From sequence record SRR20825006_2421: 36,568 nt of DNA; one strand, given 5' to 3'. The position numbers were made by a program, and so were the translations under genes. The notes beneath the pieces are model-generated. The model did not search any database, was not told the DNA's origin, and saw only the letters and a program-made list of their open reading frames with translations. Shown piece after piece: positions 23,487 through 31,698 of the stretch (its first letter is position 1; each line of letters opens with the position of its first letter).

Positions 23487-24191
23487 CTACAGCACGCTCA
23501 TCCACCAGTTAAGCCGTTCTCGTTTCGGTGGCAGGGGAGTCTCTGGCGTTTTTTGCTGTGTGCTGGCGGGCTCGGAAGGGCTGGCCTGGCTCGGCTGGAT
23601 ACCGAAGGTAGGGTACAGTGACGCTACCAGCAGGACGGCCATGGCGCGGTTGAAACCGCGTAGCCGCTGATCTTTATGCAGCCAGTTTTTCAGCGCGGCA
23701 CCAAACAGATTCCAGCAGCTGATCAGGGGGAGTCCAACCATCAGGAAGGTGCCGGCAATAATGGCCACGCTCAAGGTGAAGGCCTGCGGTTGGGTGAAAG
23801 TGGCGACGCCGGTGAGAATCATCATCCAGGCCTTGGGGTTAATCCACTGGAACAGCGCTGCCTGCATGAAGGTGAACGGTCTTGCCGTGTGGCTACTGGT
23901 GTCCAGTTGGCGGGTGCGCACCAGTTGCCAGGCCAGGTAGAGCAAATAGAAGGCGCCACCCACGCGCAATGCAATCACTGCTTGGGGAAAGCGGGTGAGC
24001 AGAGGGCCGAGCCCCAGCGCCACACACAGCAGGATCACCTGACAGCCGATGGCGATGCCAAAAATATGCCCCAGGGAGCGGCGAAAACCGGCGTTGGCTC
24101 CGGATGCGACCAGCATCAGGTTGTTGGGGCCGGGGGTGCCGGTCATGACAGCGACAAAACCGATTAAGGCCACAAACTGCTCGGTCAGCAT
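23487..24191 (-). CDS. LysE/RhtB family amino acid exporter
   Basis: TPGPNNLML and FQWINPKAW motifs, multiple TM helices. Confidence 0.9.
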   Translation of the reverse strand: MLTEQFVALIGFVAVMTGTPGPNNLMLVASGANAGFRRSLGHIFGIAIGCQVILLCVALGLGPLLTRFPQAVIALRVGGAFYLLYLAWQLVRTRQLDTSSHTARPFTFMQAALFQWINPKAWMMILTGVATFTQPQAFTLSVAIIAGTFLMVGLPLISCWNLFGAALKNWLHKDQRLRGFNRAMAVLLVASLYPTFGIQPSQASPSEPASTQQKTPETPLPPKRERLNWWMSVL

Positions 24192-24260
24192 GACAAGGGT
24201 CCTTTCTTCGAATGGGGCGGGAGGTATCTATCTGAATAGACTAGGTGGACAGTCTCTACC

Positions 24261-24345
24261 GATACAGATATAACAATGTGAAATTGCTGCGGTACAGATA
24301 GGATTTTCTTCTATCTGTACTTGCTGTGATGCACACAACTGTATC
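24261..24345. promoter_or_regulatory. Putative MocR operator array (TACAGATA boxes)
   Basis: GATACAGATA at 24261; GTACAGATAG (24292-24301) and CTATCTGTAC (24311-24320) form a perfect inverted repeat; CTGTATC at 24339; lies between divergent lysE and mocR. Confidence 0.7.
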
Positions 24346-24360
24346 GCTTTGGATTATTTC

Positions 24361-25761
24361 ATGACCTTGTATCAGAGCCTGGCAGACCGGCTTCAACGTT
24401 TGATCAACGAGCAGGTGTACCCGGTGGGCAGTCGGCTTCCCGGTGTACGTTTGCTCGGTGCTCAGCACGGTGTGAGTGTGTCTACTGCGGTGAATGCGTG
24501 TCGGGAGCTGGAACAGCGCGGTGTGCTGGAGGCGCGGCCCCGCTCGGGGTATTACGTCCGCCAGCCGCCGGTGCTGCGAGAGCCGCCCAGGGTGGCGACG
24601 GCCAGCCGCAAGCCTCGCAGGATCACCGGGCAGGAACAGGTGCTGCAGATGCTGCAGAACGTGAATAATCCGGCGGTGGTCAATCTTGGTGCTGCGGTGC
24701 CCGCGCCGGAATTTATGCCGGTGGCGGCCATGGAGCGCGTTTTTCATGGTGTGCTGCGCGAACAACGGCGCCGTTGTGTGGGGTATGAATTCCCCCCCGG
24801 GGCGCCGGAGTTGCGTACCCAGATTGCCCGTCGATTGGCGGGCATGCAATGCGCGGTGGCACCGGAAGAGGTGCTGATTACCAATAGCTGCCAGGAATCC
24901 GTGGCGATTGCCCTGAAGCTCACGACGCGCCCCGGTGATACGGTGGCGATTGAATCGCCAACCTATTACGGCTTGCTGCAGGTGATTGAGTCCCTGGGCC
25001 TGAAGGCGCTGGAAATCCCTACGGATCCGGAACAAGGGATTTCACTGGAGGCGTTGACGCTGGCGTTGGAACGTTGGCCGGTTGCAGCCTGTGTTGTGGT
25101 GCCGAATTTTTCCAATCCGCTGGGTGTGTGTCTGTCCGATGCGCGCAAGCAGGCGTTGCTGGCCTTGCTGGGGCGTTATCAGGTGCCGCTGGTGGAGGAT
25201 GATATCTATGGGGATTTGCCGCTTTCCGGGCCTCGCCCCCGGCCTGTCAAAAGCTGGGATGACAATGGGCTGGTGTATTATTGCTCCTCCTCATCGAAGA
25301 CCCTGTCTGCCGGCTTGCGTGTGGGGTGGTTGGTGCCGCCGCCAGCCCAACAGGAACGTGCTGAGTATTTGCAGTTTATCAATACGGTGTCGGTGAATAC
25401 GCCGGGGCAATTGGCGTTGGCCAGGTATCTGGAAACCGGTCGTTATGAGCGTTTTCTTCGCCAGTTATGTGCAGACCATGCATTGGGTGTAGCACGGATG
25501 ACCGAACGGGTGACGCAGCTTTTTCCCCGACAAACCCGGGTCAGCCGGCCGGCGGGAGGTTTTGTGCTATGGGTGGAGTTACCGGAGGATGTGGATACCA
25601 CTCAGTTAATGGAAAGCGCGTTGGCGAAAGGGGTCAGTTTTGCTCCGGGCATGTTGTTTTCCGCGTCAGGAAAATTTGCCAACTGCTTGCGCCTGAATTG
25701 TGCAGTGAAATGGGATAACCGGGTTGAGCAGGCATTGGTGACCTTGTCGCGGTTGTTATAA
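24361..25761 (+). CDS. MocR/GabR family PLP-dependent GntR regulator
   Basis: wHTH GSRLPGVR..GVSVSTAVNA..RPRSGYYV plus aminotransferase-like domain (ESPTY, PNFSNPLG, VEDDIYG, SSSKTLSAGLRVGW). Confidence 0.93.
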   Translation: MTLYQSLADRLQRLINEQVYPVGSRLPGVRLLGAQHGVSVSTAVNACRELEQRGVLEARPRSGYYVRQPPVLREPPRVATASRKPRRITGQEQVLQMLQNVNNPAVVNLGAAVPAPEFMPVAAMERVFHGVLREQRRRCVGYEFPPGAPELRTQIARRLAGMQCAVAPEEVLITNSCQESVAIALKLTTRPGDTVAIESPTYYGLLQVIESLGLKALEIPTDPEQGISLEALTLALERWPVAACVVVPNFSNPLGVCLSDARKQALLALLGRYQVPLVEDDIYGDLPLSGPRPRPVKSWDDNGLVYYCSSSSKTLSAGLRVGWLVPPPAQQERAEYLQFINTVSVNTPGQLALARYLETGRYERFLRQLCADHALGVARMTERVTQLFPRQTRVSRPAGGFVLWVELPEDVDTTQLMESALAKGVSFAPGMLFSASGKFANCLRLNCAVKWDNRVEQALVTLSRLL

Positions 25762-25800
25762 AACGGAGCGATGAAGGAGGGCCGGGTTACCCTTAAATGC

Positions 25801-25842
25801 AAGAGGCCGCGCCCAAACCAATGGACGCGGCTTCTTTGCTTT
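25801..25842. terminator. Terminator between convergent mocR and kamA-like genes
   Basis: GAGGCCGCG..loop..CGCGGCTTC followed by TTTGCTTT. Confidence 0.6.
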
Positions 25843-25902
25843 CAGATCAGCTCGACGCTCTCACGCGCTGCGTTCGATTATCTGCTGTCCATTAACGGAT
25901 CG

Positions 25903-27294
25903 TTATTCGCTTTCCATTTCTGCCAGCTCGTCTTCGAAGAAAAACGTGTCTTCACCGAAGGCCGGCTCCAGGTGATTCAGCCAGGTGGCTTCCTCGTTGT
26001 ACTTGGCGAAGAAAGGCCGTTGCACCCAGTCGTGGTTGCGGCCCTGAATAAAGCGCAGGGCGAACACTTTCTCGCCGTTGATTTCGGTAACGCCCTGGAT
26101 TTCCACCTTGCCCGGGTGGCTGGACATGCTCGGGCCGCGCGCGGTGCGGGCGATACCGGATACCTGTTTCATGGCATCGCGATAGATCTCCCAGGCCTTG
26201 GCGAGCGGTACTTCAAAGTAATGGCGGGCGCCGGTGTCGCGCTCCACAAACATGTAATAAGGAATGATGCCCAGCTCGACCTGGGTCTGCCACAGGCGTG
26301 CCCAGTCGTCGGCGTTGTCGTTGATGTGCGCCAGCAGCGGGCCCTGGGCGCGAATCACCGCACCGGTGGCACGTACCCGTTTTACCGCTTCACGGGCGAT
26401 GTCGGTTTCCAGTTCCTGCCAGTGGTTGTAGTGCGCCATCAGCGCCAGGTGTTTGCCGCTGGCGATCACTTCCTCGAACAGGTCGAGCAGGTCTTTGGCG
26501 TCGGCGTCGGAGACCACACGCTGGGGCCAGAAGGTGAGGGCCTTGGAACCGATACGGATGGTGCGGATCTGTTCCAGTTCCAGCAGCGGTTCGATATGCG
26601 CCCGCAGGTTTTTGGTTTTCATTACCAGCGGGTCGCCGCCGGTGATCAGCACATCGGAAATTTCCGGGTGGGCCTGAATGTACTTCTTCAGTTGCCCGGC
26701 TTCCTTGGTGGCAATTTTCAGGTCGTTGTCACCGATGAACTGGGCCCAGCGGAAACAGAAGGTGCAGTAGCTGTGGCAGACCTGGCCCTGGCTGGGAAAA
26801 AACAGCACGGTTTCATTGTACTTGTGCTGAATGCCTTCAATCTTTTCGCCATCCACTTCCGGGATGTTGTGTTCCATTTGCCCGGCGGGATGCGGGTTCA
26901 GCGCTTCGCGGACTTCGGCGATGGAGGCCTTGATGACGGCTTTGTCGCCTCCGCGCATGGCCTCGGCGACCTTGTCGAAGTGTTCCGGTGCCAGCATGCC
27001 TTTCTGGGGAAAGGTGAGCTGGTAGATGGGATCATTGGGAACCTTGTCCCAGTTGATCAGCTCATTGATGACGTATTCATTGACCCGAAACGGCAGCACA
27101 TTCGCGACCACGTCCATGGCAAAGCGGGTCTCGTCGTCCAGGCGCTTGAGTGGCTCGATCTTGTCGAGCTGGCGCGCCGTGTAGACCTTGAACCGGCGGG
27201 GTTCGTCGTAGGCTTGTTCGGCAGATTGAGCCAGCTTGTCGGTGCTCTCACGGGTGTCCTGGTGCAGCGGAATAACCGTATTGGTTTCGGGCAT
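25903..27294 (-). CDS. KamA-family radical SAM enzyme (lysine 2,3-aminomutase-like)
   Basis: HKYNETVLFFP, CHSYCTFCFR (CxxxCxxC), LITGGDPL, IRIGSK, PYYMF and putative PLP lysine in SHPGKV; GAGGAG RBS before ATG 27294. Confidence 0.88.
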   Translation of the reverse strand: MPETNTVIPLHQDTRESTDKLAQSAEQAYDEPRRFKVYTARQLDKIEPLKRLDDETRFAMDVVANVLPFRVNEYVINELINWDKVPNDPIYQLTFPQKGMLAPEHFDKVAEAMRGGDKAVIKASIAEVREALNPHPAGQMEHNIPEVDGEKIEGIQHKYNETVLFFPSQGQVCHSYCTFCFRWAQFIGDNDLKIATKEAGQLKKYIQAHPEISDVLITGGDPLVMKTKNLRAHIEPLLELEQIRTIRIGSKALTFWPQRVVSDADAKDLLDLFEEVIASGKHLALMAHYNHWQELETDIAREAVKRVRATGAVIRAQGPLLAHINDNADDWARLWQTQVELGIIPYYMFVERDTGARHYFEVPLAKAWEIYRDAMKQVSGIARTARGPSMSSHPGKVEIQGVTEINGEKVFALRFIQGRNHDWVQRPFFAKYNEEATWLNHLEPAFGEDTFFFEDELAEMESE

Positions 27295-27557
27295 GGTATC
27301 GCTCCTCATCATGCGCCGGCATGACGATAACGCCGTCAACACCGGTACACTGGTTGCCTAAACCAGCGGAATTAGTCGTTACTACTGATGGCCAGCGGCG
27401 GCTGGCGCTGAGTCGGGCTTGTCTGGCCCGTTTAACGTGCGTCGGCAAGGCGACGCAGAGGACTTGGAACGAATCGCCCCCCAGCCTGATCGGGGAGGAG
27501 AGTGGTCATTTGCTGCACGCTGTTTAATAGACGCGAGCCGACCGGTGTTCCAAAAGA
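27295..27557 (-). promoter_or_regulatory. Long structured 5' leader of the kamA-like gene (candidate cis-regulatory RNA)
   Basis: At least six hairpins plus mutually exclusive long-range pairings and an anti-SD tract between the predicted promoter and the RBS. Confidence 0.55.
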
Positions 27558-27563
27558 GAGCGT

Positions 27564-27592
27564 ATTCTAGGGAAGCGGCGCGCAAAGCGCAA
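27564..27592 (-). promoter_or_regulatory. Sigma70-type promoter for the kamA-like gene
   Basis: Minus strand TTGCGC-N17-TAGAAT. Confidence 0.6.
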
Positions 27593-27662
27593 AGCGCAAC
27601 GGATGCTGGCCTCGCCGGTTATGCTATCGTTGAGCGGATACCTGCTTCAGAGACGGAACTGA

Positions 27663-29114
27663 ATGCCTTTGGATGTCACTTACTGGACCGCTGAAATTGA
27701 CGCCTTACTGACGATGCTGGACCCCTATTGGCCCTATGTGGCGGCGGCCATCAGTATCGGGTTGGCGGTGACGGTGACGGTGCATGTCGCTCAGAATAAG
27801 CGCGATGCCCGTGCGGCGGCGGCCTGGACCGGGCTTGTCTGGCTGGTGCCGGTGCTGGGGGCGCTGCTCTATTACATCCTGGGCGTCAATCGGATTCGCC
27901 GGCGGGCACGCCAGCTGACCGGTGGCCTGATTGACAGCAATGATGGCTGGCGCGTTGCGGCCGAGCCTGAACCGGACCTGAAGCACCTGAAAATCCTCAG
28001 TCGCCTGGTGGGGCGGCTGACCCACTTGCCGCTCACCGACGGCAACCGCATTACCCTGCTGGATGCCCCCGGCGCTTACCAGGCCATGTTAGATGCCATC
28101 GACAATGCCAATGAAAGCATTTATCTGGCCACCTATATTTTCGGCAACGATGCCGCCGGTAAACCGCTGGCTGATGCGCTCTCTGCGGCGGTGGCGCGGG
28201 GAGTGAAGGTGCGGGTGCTGGTGGACGGTGTCGGCGCTCTGTATTCCCTGCCGTCAGTGGTCTGGCGGCTGCGCCGTGGCAAGGTGCCGGTGGAGCGTTT
28301 TCTGTATTCCCTGGCTCCCTGGCGCATGCCGTACCTGAATCTGCGCAATCATCGTAAATTCATGGTGGTGGACCGCCGTTATGGCTTTACCGGTGGCATG
28401 AACATTCGCGCCGGCTATATACAACAACCGCCGAAGATTACCGACCTGCATGCTGGCATCGAAGGGCCGGTGGTGGGGCAGTTATTGCGCAGCTTTGCCG
28501 CAGACTGGTATTTCACCAGTGGCGAGTTGCTGGACACCAGTTACCGCGGCCCGGCCTGGCTGGGCGATGTGCAGTCCCGGGGCATCAGTGCCGGCCCGGA
28601 TGCGGATTTCGACAAGCGTCGCATGACGCTGCTGGCGGCCATTGGCAGCGCGGAATCCCGTATTCGCATCGTCACCCCGTATTTCGTGCCCGATCTGACC
28701 TTGCTGGCCACACTGCAACTGGCGCTGCTGAAAGGGGTGCGGGTACAGATTGTCATCCCGCGCAAGAACAACCTGCGCCTGGTGCACTGGGCCAGTCTGC
28801 ATGCCCTGCGCTGGCTGGTTGCCGAAGGGGCTGAGCTCTATCTGTCGCCGCCGCCATTTGATCACAGCAAAGTGATGACAGTGGATCAGCACTGGGTCAT
28901 GTTGGGGTCGGGTAACTGGGATGCGCGCAGCCTGCGGCTGAATTTCGAGTTTGATCTGGAGTGCTACGGGGAGGCGCTGGCGGAGCAGATTGATGAAGCG
29001 CTGGATGAGCGGATTGCGCTTTCGCAGCGGCTGGATCAAGCCGGCTTTCGGCAAATGGCGCCCTGGCGACGGGTGCGCAATGCGCTGGCGCATATGATGG
29101 AGCCTTATCTTTAG
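27663..29114 (+). CDS. cls: Cardiolipin synthase (phospholipase D family)
   Basis: N-terminal PLDc_N TM hairpin and two HKD motifs (NHRKFMVVD, HSKVMTVD); alternative start 27714. Confidence 0.9.
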   Translation: MPLDVTYWTAEIDALLTMLDPYWPYVAAAISIGLAVTVTVHVAQNKRDARAAAAWTGLVWLVPVLGALLYYILGVNRIRRRARQLTGGLIDSNDGWRVAAEPEPDLKHLKILSRLVGRLTHLPLTDGNRITLLDAPGAYQAMLDAIDNANESIYLATYIFGNDAAGKPLADALSAAVARGVKVRVLVDGVGALYSLPSVVWRLRRGKVPVERFLYSLAPWRMPYLNLRNHRKFMVVDRRYGFTGGMNIRAGYIQQPPKITDLHAGIEGPVVGQLLRSFAADWYFTSGELLDTSYRGPAWLGDVQSRGISAGPDADFDKRRMTLLAAIGSAESRIRIVTPYFVPDLTLLATLQLALLKGVRVQIVIPRKNNLRLVHWASLHALRWLVAEGAELYLSPPPFDHSKVMTVDQHWVMLGSGNWDARSLRLNFEFDLECYGEALAEQIDEALDERIALSQRLDQAGFRQMAPWRRVRNALAHMMEPYL

Positions 29115-31621: not shown

Positions 31622-31698
31622 TGGTGCCCCGGAGACGATTCGAACGTCCGACCTAGCGCTTAGGAGGCGCTTGCTCTATCCAACTGAGCTACCGGGGC
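31622..31698 (-). tRNA. tRNA-Arg (anticodon CCT)
   Basis: GCCCCGGTAGCTCAGTTGGATAGAGCAAGCGC-CTCCTAA-GCGCTAGGTCGGACGTTCGAATCGTCTCCGGGGCACCA; complete cloverleaf, 77 nt. Confidence 0.97.

Follow-up and report, generated by a model that had tools for sequence, protein, structure and literature searches.

The 36,568-nucleotide (nt) stretch of DNA analysed here (sequence record SRR20825006_2421; hereafter the window) carries on its minus strand a gene for a KamA-like radical S-adenosylmethionine protein, and between this gene and the divergent cardiolipin synthase gene cls lies an intergenic region of 368 nt (27295-27662). The question raised by this locus is whether the long leader ahead of the kamA-like gene forms an RNA structure that has been kept by selection and, if so, what this structure might do for the expression of the gene. 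In an original prediction, made from the letters of the window, the leader was described as a riboswitch-like chain of hairpins with mutually exclusive pairings, and a translational switch was proposed. We compared 38 distinct leaders of the Alcanivoracaceae and are highly confident, from this sequence comparison, that the leader is a real conserved RNA structure. With only slight preference, we lean towards the view that it is a lineage-specific, cis-acting RNA for the post-transcriptional control of the kamA-like messenger RNA (mRNA) in Alcanivorax. It is probably a new, undescribed and narrowly distributed cis-regulatory candidate outside the catalogued RNA families.

Conserved RNA structure of the leader

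The leader is about 265 nt long. It consists of P1, which encloses P2 and P3, followed by P4, P5, P6, P7 and P8, and this chain stops 5 nt before the Shine-Dalgarno sequence (SD) (Table 1). RNAalifold predicted P1, P4, P6, P7 and P8 on plain MAFFT alignments, with compensatory changes in 7/34 and 8/44 pairs of the two alignments. Two covariance models were built, R1 for the 3' module (P6, P7, P8 and the ribosome-binding region) and R2 for the 5' domain (P1, P3 and P4). In the R1 alignment 94.7% of the cells were paired, compared with 29-57% when the partners were slid, and 13 of the 21 pairs had changed on both sides; in the R2 alignment the values were 86.2%, 26-49% and 10 of 20, both alignments being fitted to the modelled structure. 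Covariation among orthologous leaders was therefore found for several helices, by pair counts as well as by RNAalifold.

The helices differ in how much they vary. In alignment A6 (22 sequences), 93.5% of the cells of P1 were paired and 4/7 of its pairs had changed on both sides; for P3 these values were 77.3% and 4/6, and for P4, which RNAalifold also predicted, 86.7% and 2/7. The loop motif CCG..GCUGG of P3 is kept within Alcanivorax only. A GCG..CGC hairpin after a pyrimidine tract is also seen in the leaders of Alloalcanivorax. In the R1 alignment all six pairs of P6 had changed on both sides, with 87.0% of the cells paired; the stem reads ACCGGC/GCCGGU in L015 and L017 and GCCGG-UGUCA-CCGGC in Alloalcanivorax. 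P7 is paired in 99.5% of the cells, and its core CUGG/CCAG is invariant among 33 distinct sequences of both genera, with variation in the upper stem and loop. P8 was predicted on the MAFFT alignments, with 98.5% of the cells paired and changes on both sides in 4/8 pairs. AGGA and AUG are invariant in the ribosome-binding region, and the tblastn alignments of the relatives begin at residue 1 on the same AUG.

All hairpins and complementarities of the original prediction were found on the minus strand at the coordinates given for them. Its hairpins P4, P6 and P7 are supported by the comparison, as is P8, the helix that surrounds its hairpin at 27338-27322. Two others fared less well: the 4-bp (base pair) hairpin at 27384-27373 lies in the P6-P7 linker, which past its first 9 nt is rich in indels and poorly conserved, and P5 differs in sequence among clades and is deleted in one species (L014). 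The pentamer GCUGG occurs in 2-4 copies per Alcanivorax leader, compared with 0.3-0.45 expected. It has three homologous positions, one in the loop of P3, one in P6 (3' strand) and one in P7 (5' strand), and just two complementary CCAG tracts occur.

Leaders of the genus share 75-100% identity with the window over the 3' module, compared with 53-83% at the four-fold degenerate sites of the gene. The 3' module is thus more conserved than these sites, which supports constraint at the RNA level. In two Alloalcanivorax leaders (L053 and L064) a 20-nt insertion (GAAGGAG...CUCCUU) inside the P7 loop pairs with itself and the P7 hairpin is kept, which fits an RNA hairpin and does not fit a DNA operator. 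Taken as comparative evidence, these observations indicate that purifying selection acts on the helices of the leader as RNA.

Table 1. Positions of the leader elements and adjoining genes in the window.
Feature	Coordinates	Strand	Remarks
KamA-family-like radical SAM gene	25903..27294	minus	463 amino acids (aa); monocistronic; convergent MocR-like regulator gene downstream
Cardiolipin synthase gene cls	27663..29114	plus	divergent; bounds the intergenic region; PLDc_2 150 bits
MocR-like regulator gene	24349-25761		convergent with the kamA-like gene; LysE-type transporter gene beyond
-35-like TTGCGC	27587..27592	minus	17-nt spacer to the -10-like hexamer
-10-like TAGAAT	27564..27569	minus	TAAAAT, TAGACT, TACCAT or TACAAT in relatives
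5' domain	27464..27553	minus	P1 encloses the variable hairpin P2 and P3; modelled by R2
P1	27553-27547 with 27470-27464	minus	UUGGAAC with GUUCCAA; pair counts, and RNAalifold on plain MAFFT alignments
P2	27543-27504	minus	variable hairpin inside P1
P3	27498-27493 with 27482-27477	minus	CCUCCC with GGGGGG; loop carries CCG..GGCUGG
UCCUC tract	27458..27462	minus	conserved pyrimidines directly 3' of P1; candidate long-range anti-SD
P4	27438..27457	minus	UGCGUCG-CCUUGC-CGACGCA, 7-bp stem
P5	27414..27430	minus	CGGGC-CAGACAA-GCCCG; variable, dispensable; outside the models
P6	27391..27406	minus	GCCAGC-CGCC-GCUGGC
P6-P7 linker	27368..27390	minus	conserved CAUCAGUAG first, then A-rich and variable in length
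P7	27349..27367	minus	GCUGGUU-UAGGC-AACCAGU
P8	27313..27348	minus	outer helix GU.CCGGUG/UGCCGG.GC around a variable inner hairpin (27338-27322)
Ribosome-binding region	27292..27312	minus	AUGAU, SD GAGGAG (27307-27302), 7-nt spacer, AUG (27294-27292)

A promoter-like block precedes the first helix

A promoter of the form TTGCGC-17-TAGAAT had been predicted ahead of the leader. It is present in the window, and the promoter-like block (TTTGCGC...TA(G/A)AAT) was found in 37 of the 38 distinct Alcanivoracaceae leaders, with constant spacing to the first helix; P1 starts 10-14 nt past the -10-like hexamer in all aligned Alcanivorax leaders. On the other side, a consensus promoter scan of 27100-27900 listed none, because TTGCGC matches just 3/6 positions of TTGACA. 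From these positions we infer a transcription start near 27557 (+/-3), about 263 nt upstream of the start codon.

The -35 region forms a triple tandem heptamer, TTGCGCT/TTGCGCT/TTGCGCG (27599-27579), and TTTGCGCTTTGC is kept in the alignments of the relatives. This tandem heptamer could be a regulator binding site.

Distribution of the leader

Leader DNA was detected in 24 of 61 related genomes, including 22/24 of the same genus, and always between cls and the kamA-like gene. Model R1 matched all 39 Alcanivoracaceae kamA-like loci and none of 45 loci of other genera. When 101 whole genomes were searched, R1 gave a single strong match each in 21/24 Alcanivorax and 9/10 Alloalcanivorax genomes, and in the remaining 67 genomes nothing better than E = 0.0068. 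Second R1 matches within a genome all stayed below 21 bits, and the DNA search returned one locus per genome, apart from a 27-nt match at chance level. Thus, with one strong R1 match per genome, the leader does not behave like a dispersed repeat of the repetitive extragenic palindromic type. The range of R2 is narrower: it matched 22 loci in 83 sources, all of the genus Alcanivorax, and in Alloalcanivorax the 5' domain is either missing or rebuilt.

The presence of the motif tracks an intact gene. Two genomes of other genera of the same family that lack the orthologue also lack the motif, and a genome with the 3' half only of the kamA-like gene (L115) gave no leader match. In one species the kamA-like gene is present and the leader is strongly diverged.

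The suggestion that the leader lies outside the known Rfam families was borne out. A scan of the whole window with Rfam 15 (4227 models) at gathering thresholds returned only a transfer RNA (tRNA) at 31625-31698; at E <= 10, the only match over 27150-27750 was gut-2 with 14.4 bits (gathering 39.8) at 27720-27735, outside the leader. The leader was not described in the texts searched on Alcanivorax riboswitches, aminomutases and structured noncoding RNAs. In its main text, a differential RNA sequencing study of A. dieselolei B-5 gives only Rfam-annotated riboswitches (PMC9788540).

Proposed control of ribosome access

What could such a leader do? In the reading that we favour, the conserved promoter-like block, about 263 nt ahead of the start codon, would drive transcription of the leader, which would then act in cis at the RNA level, most likely by tuning the access of ribosomes to the SD and AUG. 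An intrinsic terminator scan of 27100-27900 gave 0 terminator-like sites; transcription attenuation is therefore unlikely. No reading frame for a leader peptide or upstream open reading frame was conserved over the leader alignments, in which the indels are not multiples of three, and an in-frame AUGAUG upstream of the start falls out of frame in Alloalcanivorax.

For the occlusion step, the leading candidate at present is a long-range pairing of UCCUC (27462-27458) with GAGGA of the SD (27307-27303); with it, P4-P8 would be closed off as a single multi-helix domain that stacks on P1. The two strands can form 5/5 pairs in 17 of 23 leaders and 4/5 in 4 more, and in folding UCCUC was the main predicted partner of the SD in 17/22 Alcanivorax leaders. 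UCCUC, rather than the CUCCUC tract of the original prediction, is the more likely SD partner. Potential triggers of a change in ribosome access might be a metabolite, a protein, a small RNA (sRNA) with Hfq or a physical cue.

Several observations weigh against control of this kind. The UCCUC:GAGGA pairing has 92.2% of its cells paired, without an excess over shuffles, and it shows no covariation because both sides are nearly invariant. In four Alcanivorax leaders the predicted unpaired probability of the SD was 0.12-0.20, compared with averages of 0.22-0.34 in dinucleotide shuffles of the upstream leader, and 17-28% of the shuffles were as low; in the one Alloalcanivorax leader tested, folding predicted a more accessible SD than in any of its shuffles. 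Several Alloalcanivorax species carry a CCCGCC or CCCACC tract with poor predicted pairing to the SD. The structural evidence has its weak sides too: the minimum free energy of the single sequence (281 nt) is -101.8 kcal/mol, with z = -1.55 and 13/200 shuffles as stable, the pair counts of R1 and R2 come from alignments shaped by the model, and independent compensatory events are few because the range is two genera. Four RNA-library runs were compared as contigs over 26600-28200, and these contigs either reach from the kamA-like gene into cls, covering all of the intergenic region, or stop at 27601, a position upstream of the promoter-like block; their depth is low, their starts and ends cannot be read as transcript ends, and carry-over of DNA is possible.

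Other partners for the SD and start codon region were considered. A predicted helix that would join CGCUCUC at the extreme 5' end to the SD vanished once the sequences were trimmed to the inferred start, and it was rejected because its bases probably lie upstream of the transcription start. Pairing of CAUC (after P6) with GAUG (27310-27307), which would close P7 and P8, was likewise given up, with 78.9% paired and 77.9% in shuffles. A local CAUG:CAUG hairpin over the start codon is possible (-4.5 kcal/mol) and, being invariant, shows no covariation. Among the candidates for conserved mutually exclusive structures (UCCUC:SD, the two pairings of the original prediction, CAUC:GAUG and CAUG:CAUG), none beat its controls by covariation.

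If the leader regulates the gene, it would give a handle on an orphan KamA-like enzyme that fits no defined aminomutase equivalog, and if it responds to a signal, it would indicate a metabolite made or used by this enzyme. A regulatory leader would also provide a new RNA motif amenable to experiment in Alcanivorax, an important genus of oil degraders. Should the structure only stabilize the mRNA, the finding is an ordinary one.

Comparison with known regulatory RNAs and with leaders of other genera

L-box elements are reported ahead of kamA-containing operons in some Firmicutes. The lysine riboswitch (L-box, RF00168) resembles the leader described here in being a long multi-helix leader before a lysine-metabolism-type gene. 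However, RF00168 gave no match at E <= 10 over 27150-27750, and it is a five-way junction closed by P1, whereas the Alcanivorax leader is a series of tandem hairpins in which no L-box-like junction sequence was seen. Translational operators with a long-range anti-SD and RNA thermometers (ROSE, fourU) are comparable in that the conserved UCCUC tract could pair with the SD and the start codon might be covered by a weak hairpin. Unlike in these systems, UCCUC lies about 150 nt from the SD and not in a local hairpin, there is no covariation and no predicted SD occlusion above that of shuffled leaders, and no Rfam thermometer family matched. Among the rare, narrow-range motifs that comparative screens have turned up ahead of single genes, the Fibro-purF motif (PMC7668255) shares with the leader the association with a single gene in one or two genera, support by covariation and the lack of an assigned ligand; its sequence and fold are unrelated, and the Alcanivorax leader is far longer (about 265 nt), with only the 3' half common to both genera.

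Leaders in Marinobacter, Halopseudomonas and Saccharospirillum are similar in context, since the same standalone gene is preceded by a long conserved leader behind a promoter-like block, and the Marinobacterium orthologue is also standalone with a long leader behind a conserved promoter-like block. In sequence, nhmmer found no match in the leaders of other genera, and R1 run with filters off on 15 loci gave at best 10.1 bits, inside a coding region. The Marinobacter loci (L071 and L082-L106) have a leader of their own of about 95 nt, located some 150 nt ahead of the start codons of the orthologues. Here an invariant promoter-like block, TTAGACCTGAAAAT...GTATACT, is followed by CGCCUGCCCGUUUUUUAACCA (25 distinct sequences) and by a covarying hairpin with the stem GGAGCGGUGG/CCACCCUCC in some and GAAAAAGUGG/CCACUUUUUC in others, with AGAGGGCGAUCUAUG afterwards. 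In four Halopseudomonas loci (L062, L065, L067 and L069) and in Saccharospirillum (L066), a TTTAGACATC block is followed 17 nt on by a TATTAT- or TAGTAT-like hexamer. This block lies about 200 nt upstream of the start codons, and the leaders of about 190 nt open with a hairpin and then (CC)AUCA.

Alternative explanations

Among the alternatives, the one that survives best is a new class of metabolite-sensing riboswitch, which we consider unlikely. P1-P3 or P6-P7-P8 would be the aptamer for a substrate, product or cofactor of the KamA-like enzyme, and the ligand would shift access to the SD. It is tempting to think of such a class because a long, covarying multi-helix leader stands directly before a metabolic enzyme gene, because no Rfam match, leader peptide or terminator was found in it, and because orthologues of other genera, for example in Marinobacter, also carry long, genus-specific conserved leaders, as if RNA-level control of the kamA-like gene were general. 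However, typical aptamers have invariant unpaired bases, and here these are few: the near-invariant positions among 33 sequences are mostly the stems of P7 and P8, the SD and AUG. Moreover, the hairpins follow one another in tandem, with no single helix closing a junction, the two genera have no 5' domain in common, the leader serves a single gene in two genera only, and no conserved pair of mutually exclusive structures emerged from the candidates tested. In an extended version of this idea, which seems slightly more doubtful still, the leader would found a new riboswitch class for the substrate or product, perhaps a beta-amino acid, of an uncharacterised and extremely conserved KamA-family aminomutase of marine hydrocarbon-degrading gammaproteobacteria, and the unrelated Marinobacter and Halopseudomonas leaders would be independent RNA solutions to one sensing problem.

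Rather improbable, too, is a leader on which an RNA-binding protein, or Hfq with an sRNA, would dock, so that translation would be repressed or activated through recognition of P7/P8 or of the A-rich linker. Sites for Hfq are marked by ARN triplets, and the P6-P7 linker opens with CAUCAGUAG, followed by 2-4 such triplets in several species. The combination of sequence-invariant stems with variable loops would fit helix- or sequence-specific recognition, and the GCUGG repeats, 2-4 per Alcanivorax leader where 0.3-0.45 are expected, are also in favour. CsrA and Hfq regulons are reported in a study on the related A. dieselolei (PMC9788540). However, the protein or sRNA partner is still only hypothetical, GGA motifs other than the SD are not conserved, and the linker sits 70-90 nt from the SD.

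We give low credence to a constitutive structural leader, whose hairpins would guard the mRNA from decay at its 5' end or fix a low level of translation without signal-dependent switching. The tandem hairpins, whose number differs by genus (P2 and P3 are confined to Alcanivorax, and Alloalcanivorax has one additional hairpin), would agree with such a passive role, as would the finding that no alternative pairing is supported. The invariance of the P7 and P8 stems, of UCCUC and of CAUGAU goes, however, beyond structural need.

The switch of the original prediction is disfavoured by the comparison of the leaders, and we regard it as very unlikely that it works. In this switch, UUGGAACACCGGU (27553-27541), complementary both to GUUCCAA (27470-27464) and to ACCGGUGUU (27346-27338), would alternate between these two partners, and CUCCUC (27500-27495) would alternate between the G6 run (27482-27477) and the SD (GAGGAG, 27307-27302). 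In the window these elements are as described and both pairings are perfect. The pairing of AACACCGGU with ACCGGUGUU is also kept with 8 or 9 of 9 pairs in the 8 closest of 23 leaders, partly via wobble changes, and its 71.4% of paired cells lie over the range of 25-58% for slid partners. However, the shuffled baseline is already 68.3%; 7 pairs remain in one leader, and the 14/23 leaders with 6 or fewer keep P1. Of the two exclusive pairings of UUGGAACACCGGU, P1 is thus maintained via compensatory changes and its rival is not conserved. The anti-SD role of CUCCUC did not stand up: the tract forms the 5' side of P3, in which it covaries with its partner, the G run. Elsewhere it reads CUGCCC, CUUCC or GUCC and still pairs with its P3 partner, and because the tract changes sequence, the complementarity to the SD is lost (3/6 pairs or fewer in 7/23 leaders). 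CUCCUC:GAGGAG is paired in 77.3% of the cells compared with 77.1% in shuffles, with 9/21 cells unpaired at each of the two outer pairs. The architecture of a translational switch in the form described is thus not conserved.

Finally, that the palindromes are DNA operators for a transcription factor such as the neighbouring MocR-like regulator is hardly tenable: P7 (CTGGT..ACCAG) and P8 (CCGG..CCGG) are invariant inverted repeats and the MocR-like gene is syntenic in 29/35 loci, but P1, P3, P6 and P8 carry compensatory changes, the spacing of the P7 half-sites shifts by 20 nt in two species with the hairpin potential kept, and the elements lie 150-250 nt downstream of the promoter-like block.

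The kamA-like gene and its neighbourhood

The downstream gene, taken in the original prediction for a KamA-like radical SAM gene, encodes a protein that resembles the KamA family. By sequence, the closest solved structure, and the only one, is lysine 2,3-aminomutase 2A5H (E = 4.9e-20), and CHSYCTFC of the protein aligns with the cluster motif (CxxxCxxC) of 2A5H, though the score against TIGR00238 (146.4 bits) is under the cutoff of 199.2 and all equivalog models are far under their cutoffs. A protein scan across genomes gave 312 relatives, of which 80 loci were kept (67-100% identity), from Alcanivorax, Alloalcanivorax, Halopseudomonas, Marinobacter, Marinobacterium, Saccharospirillum and others. 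The orthologues span several orders of marine gammaproteobacteria (67-100% identity), with 83-100% identity within the Alcanivoracaceae and 67-80% in other marine gammaproteobacteria. Five genomes (G005, G011, G013, G025 and G027) each contain a second KamA-family paralogue of about 343-379 aa, 27-30% identical and EpmB-sized; the 463-aa protein is a distinct paralogue because the same genomes carry this shorter one.

The kamA-like gene stands alone, without conserved operon partners. In the Alcanivoracaceae, the order over 23487-29114 of the window is a lysE-type transporter gene, the divergent MocR-like gene, the convergent kamA-like gene and the divergent cls; cls adjoins the kamA-like gene in 35/35 loci and the MocR-like gene is syntenic in 29/35. 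A regulator that depends on pyridoxal phosphate (PLP) and an amino-acid exporter beside a PLP-dependent aminomutase may point to a functional link. This gene order is absent from the orthologous loci of other genera, and neighbours were discarded as a clue to function, as they differ among genera (DUF924, PETase-like, pyruvate dehydrogenase E1, PhnA-domain and EamA). The cls product scored 249 bits against TIGR04265, under the 290-bit cutoff.

Two loci depart from the usual arrangement: in L023 (G005) and L025 (G006), about 1.4 kb separates cls and the kamA-like gene, compared with the usual 370-470 nt or so, and something is inserted upstream of the promoter-like block. In a complete genome of the same genus, L115 (G013:C1:963602-964339) covers kamA-like residues 217-462 in a 267-aa frame with 95% identity and looks like a truncated copy of the gene. 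The tRNA gene at 31625-31698 lies on the minus strand (Rfam RF00005, 66.6 bits).

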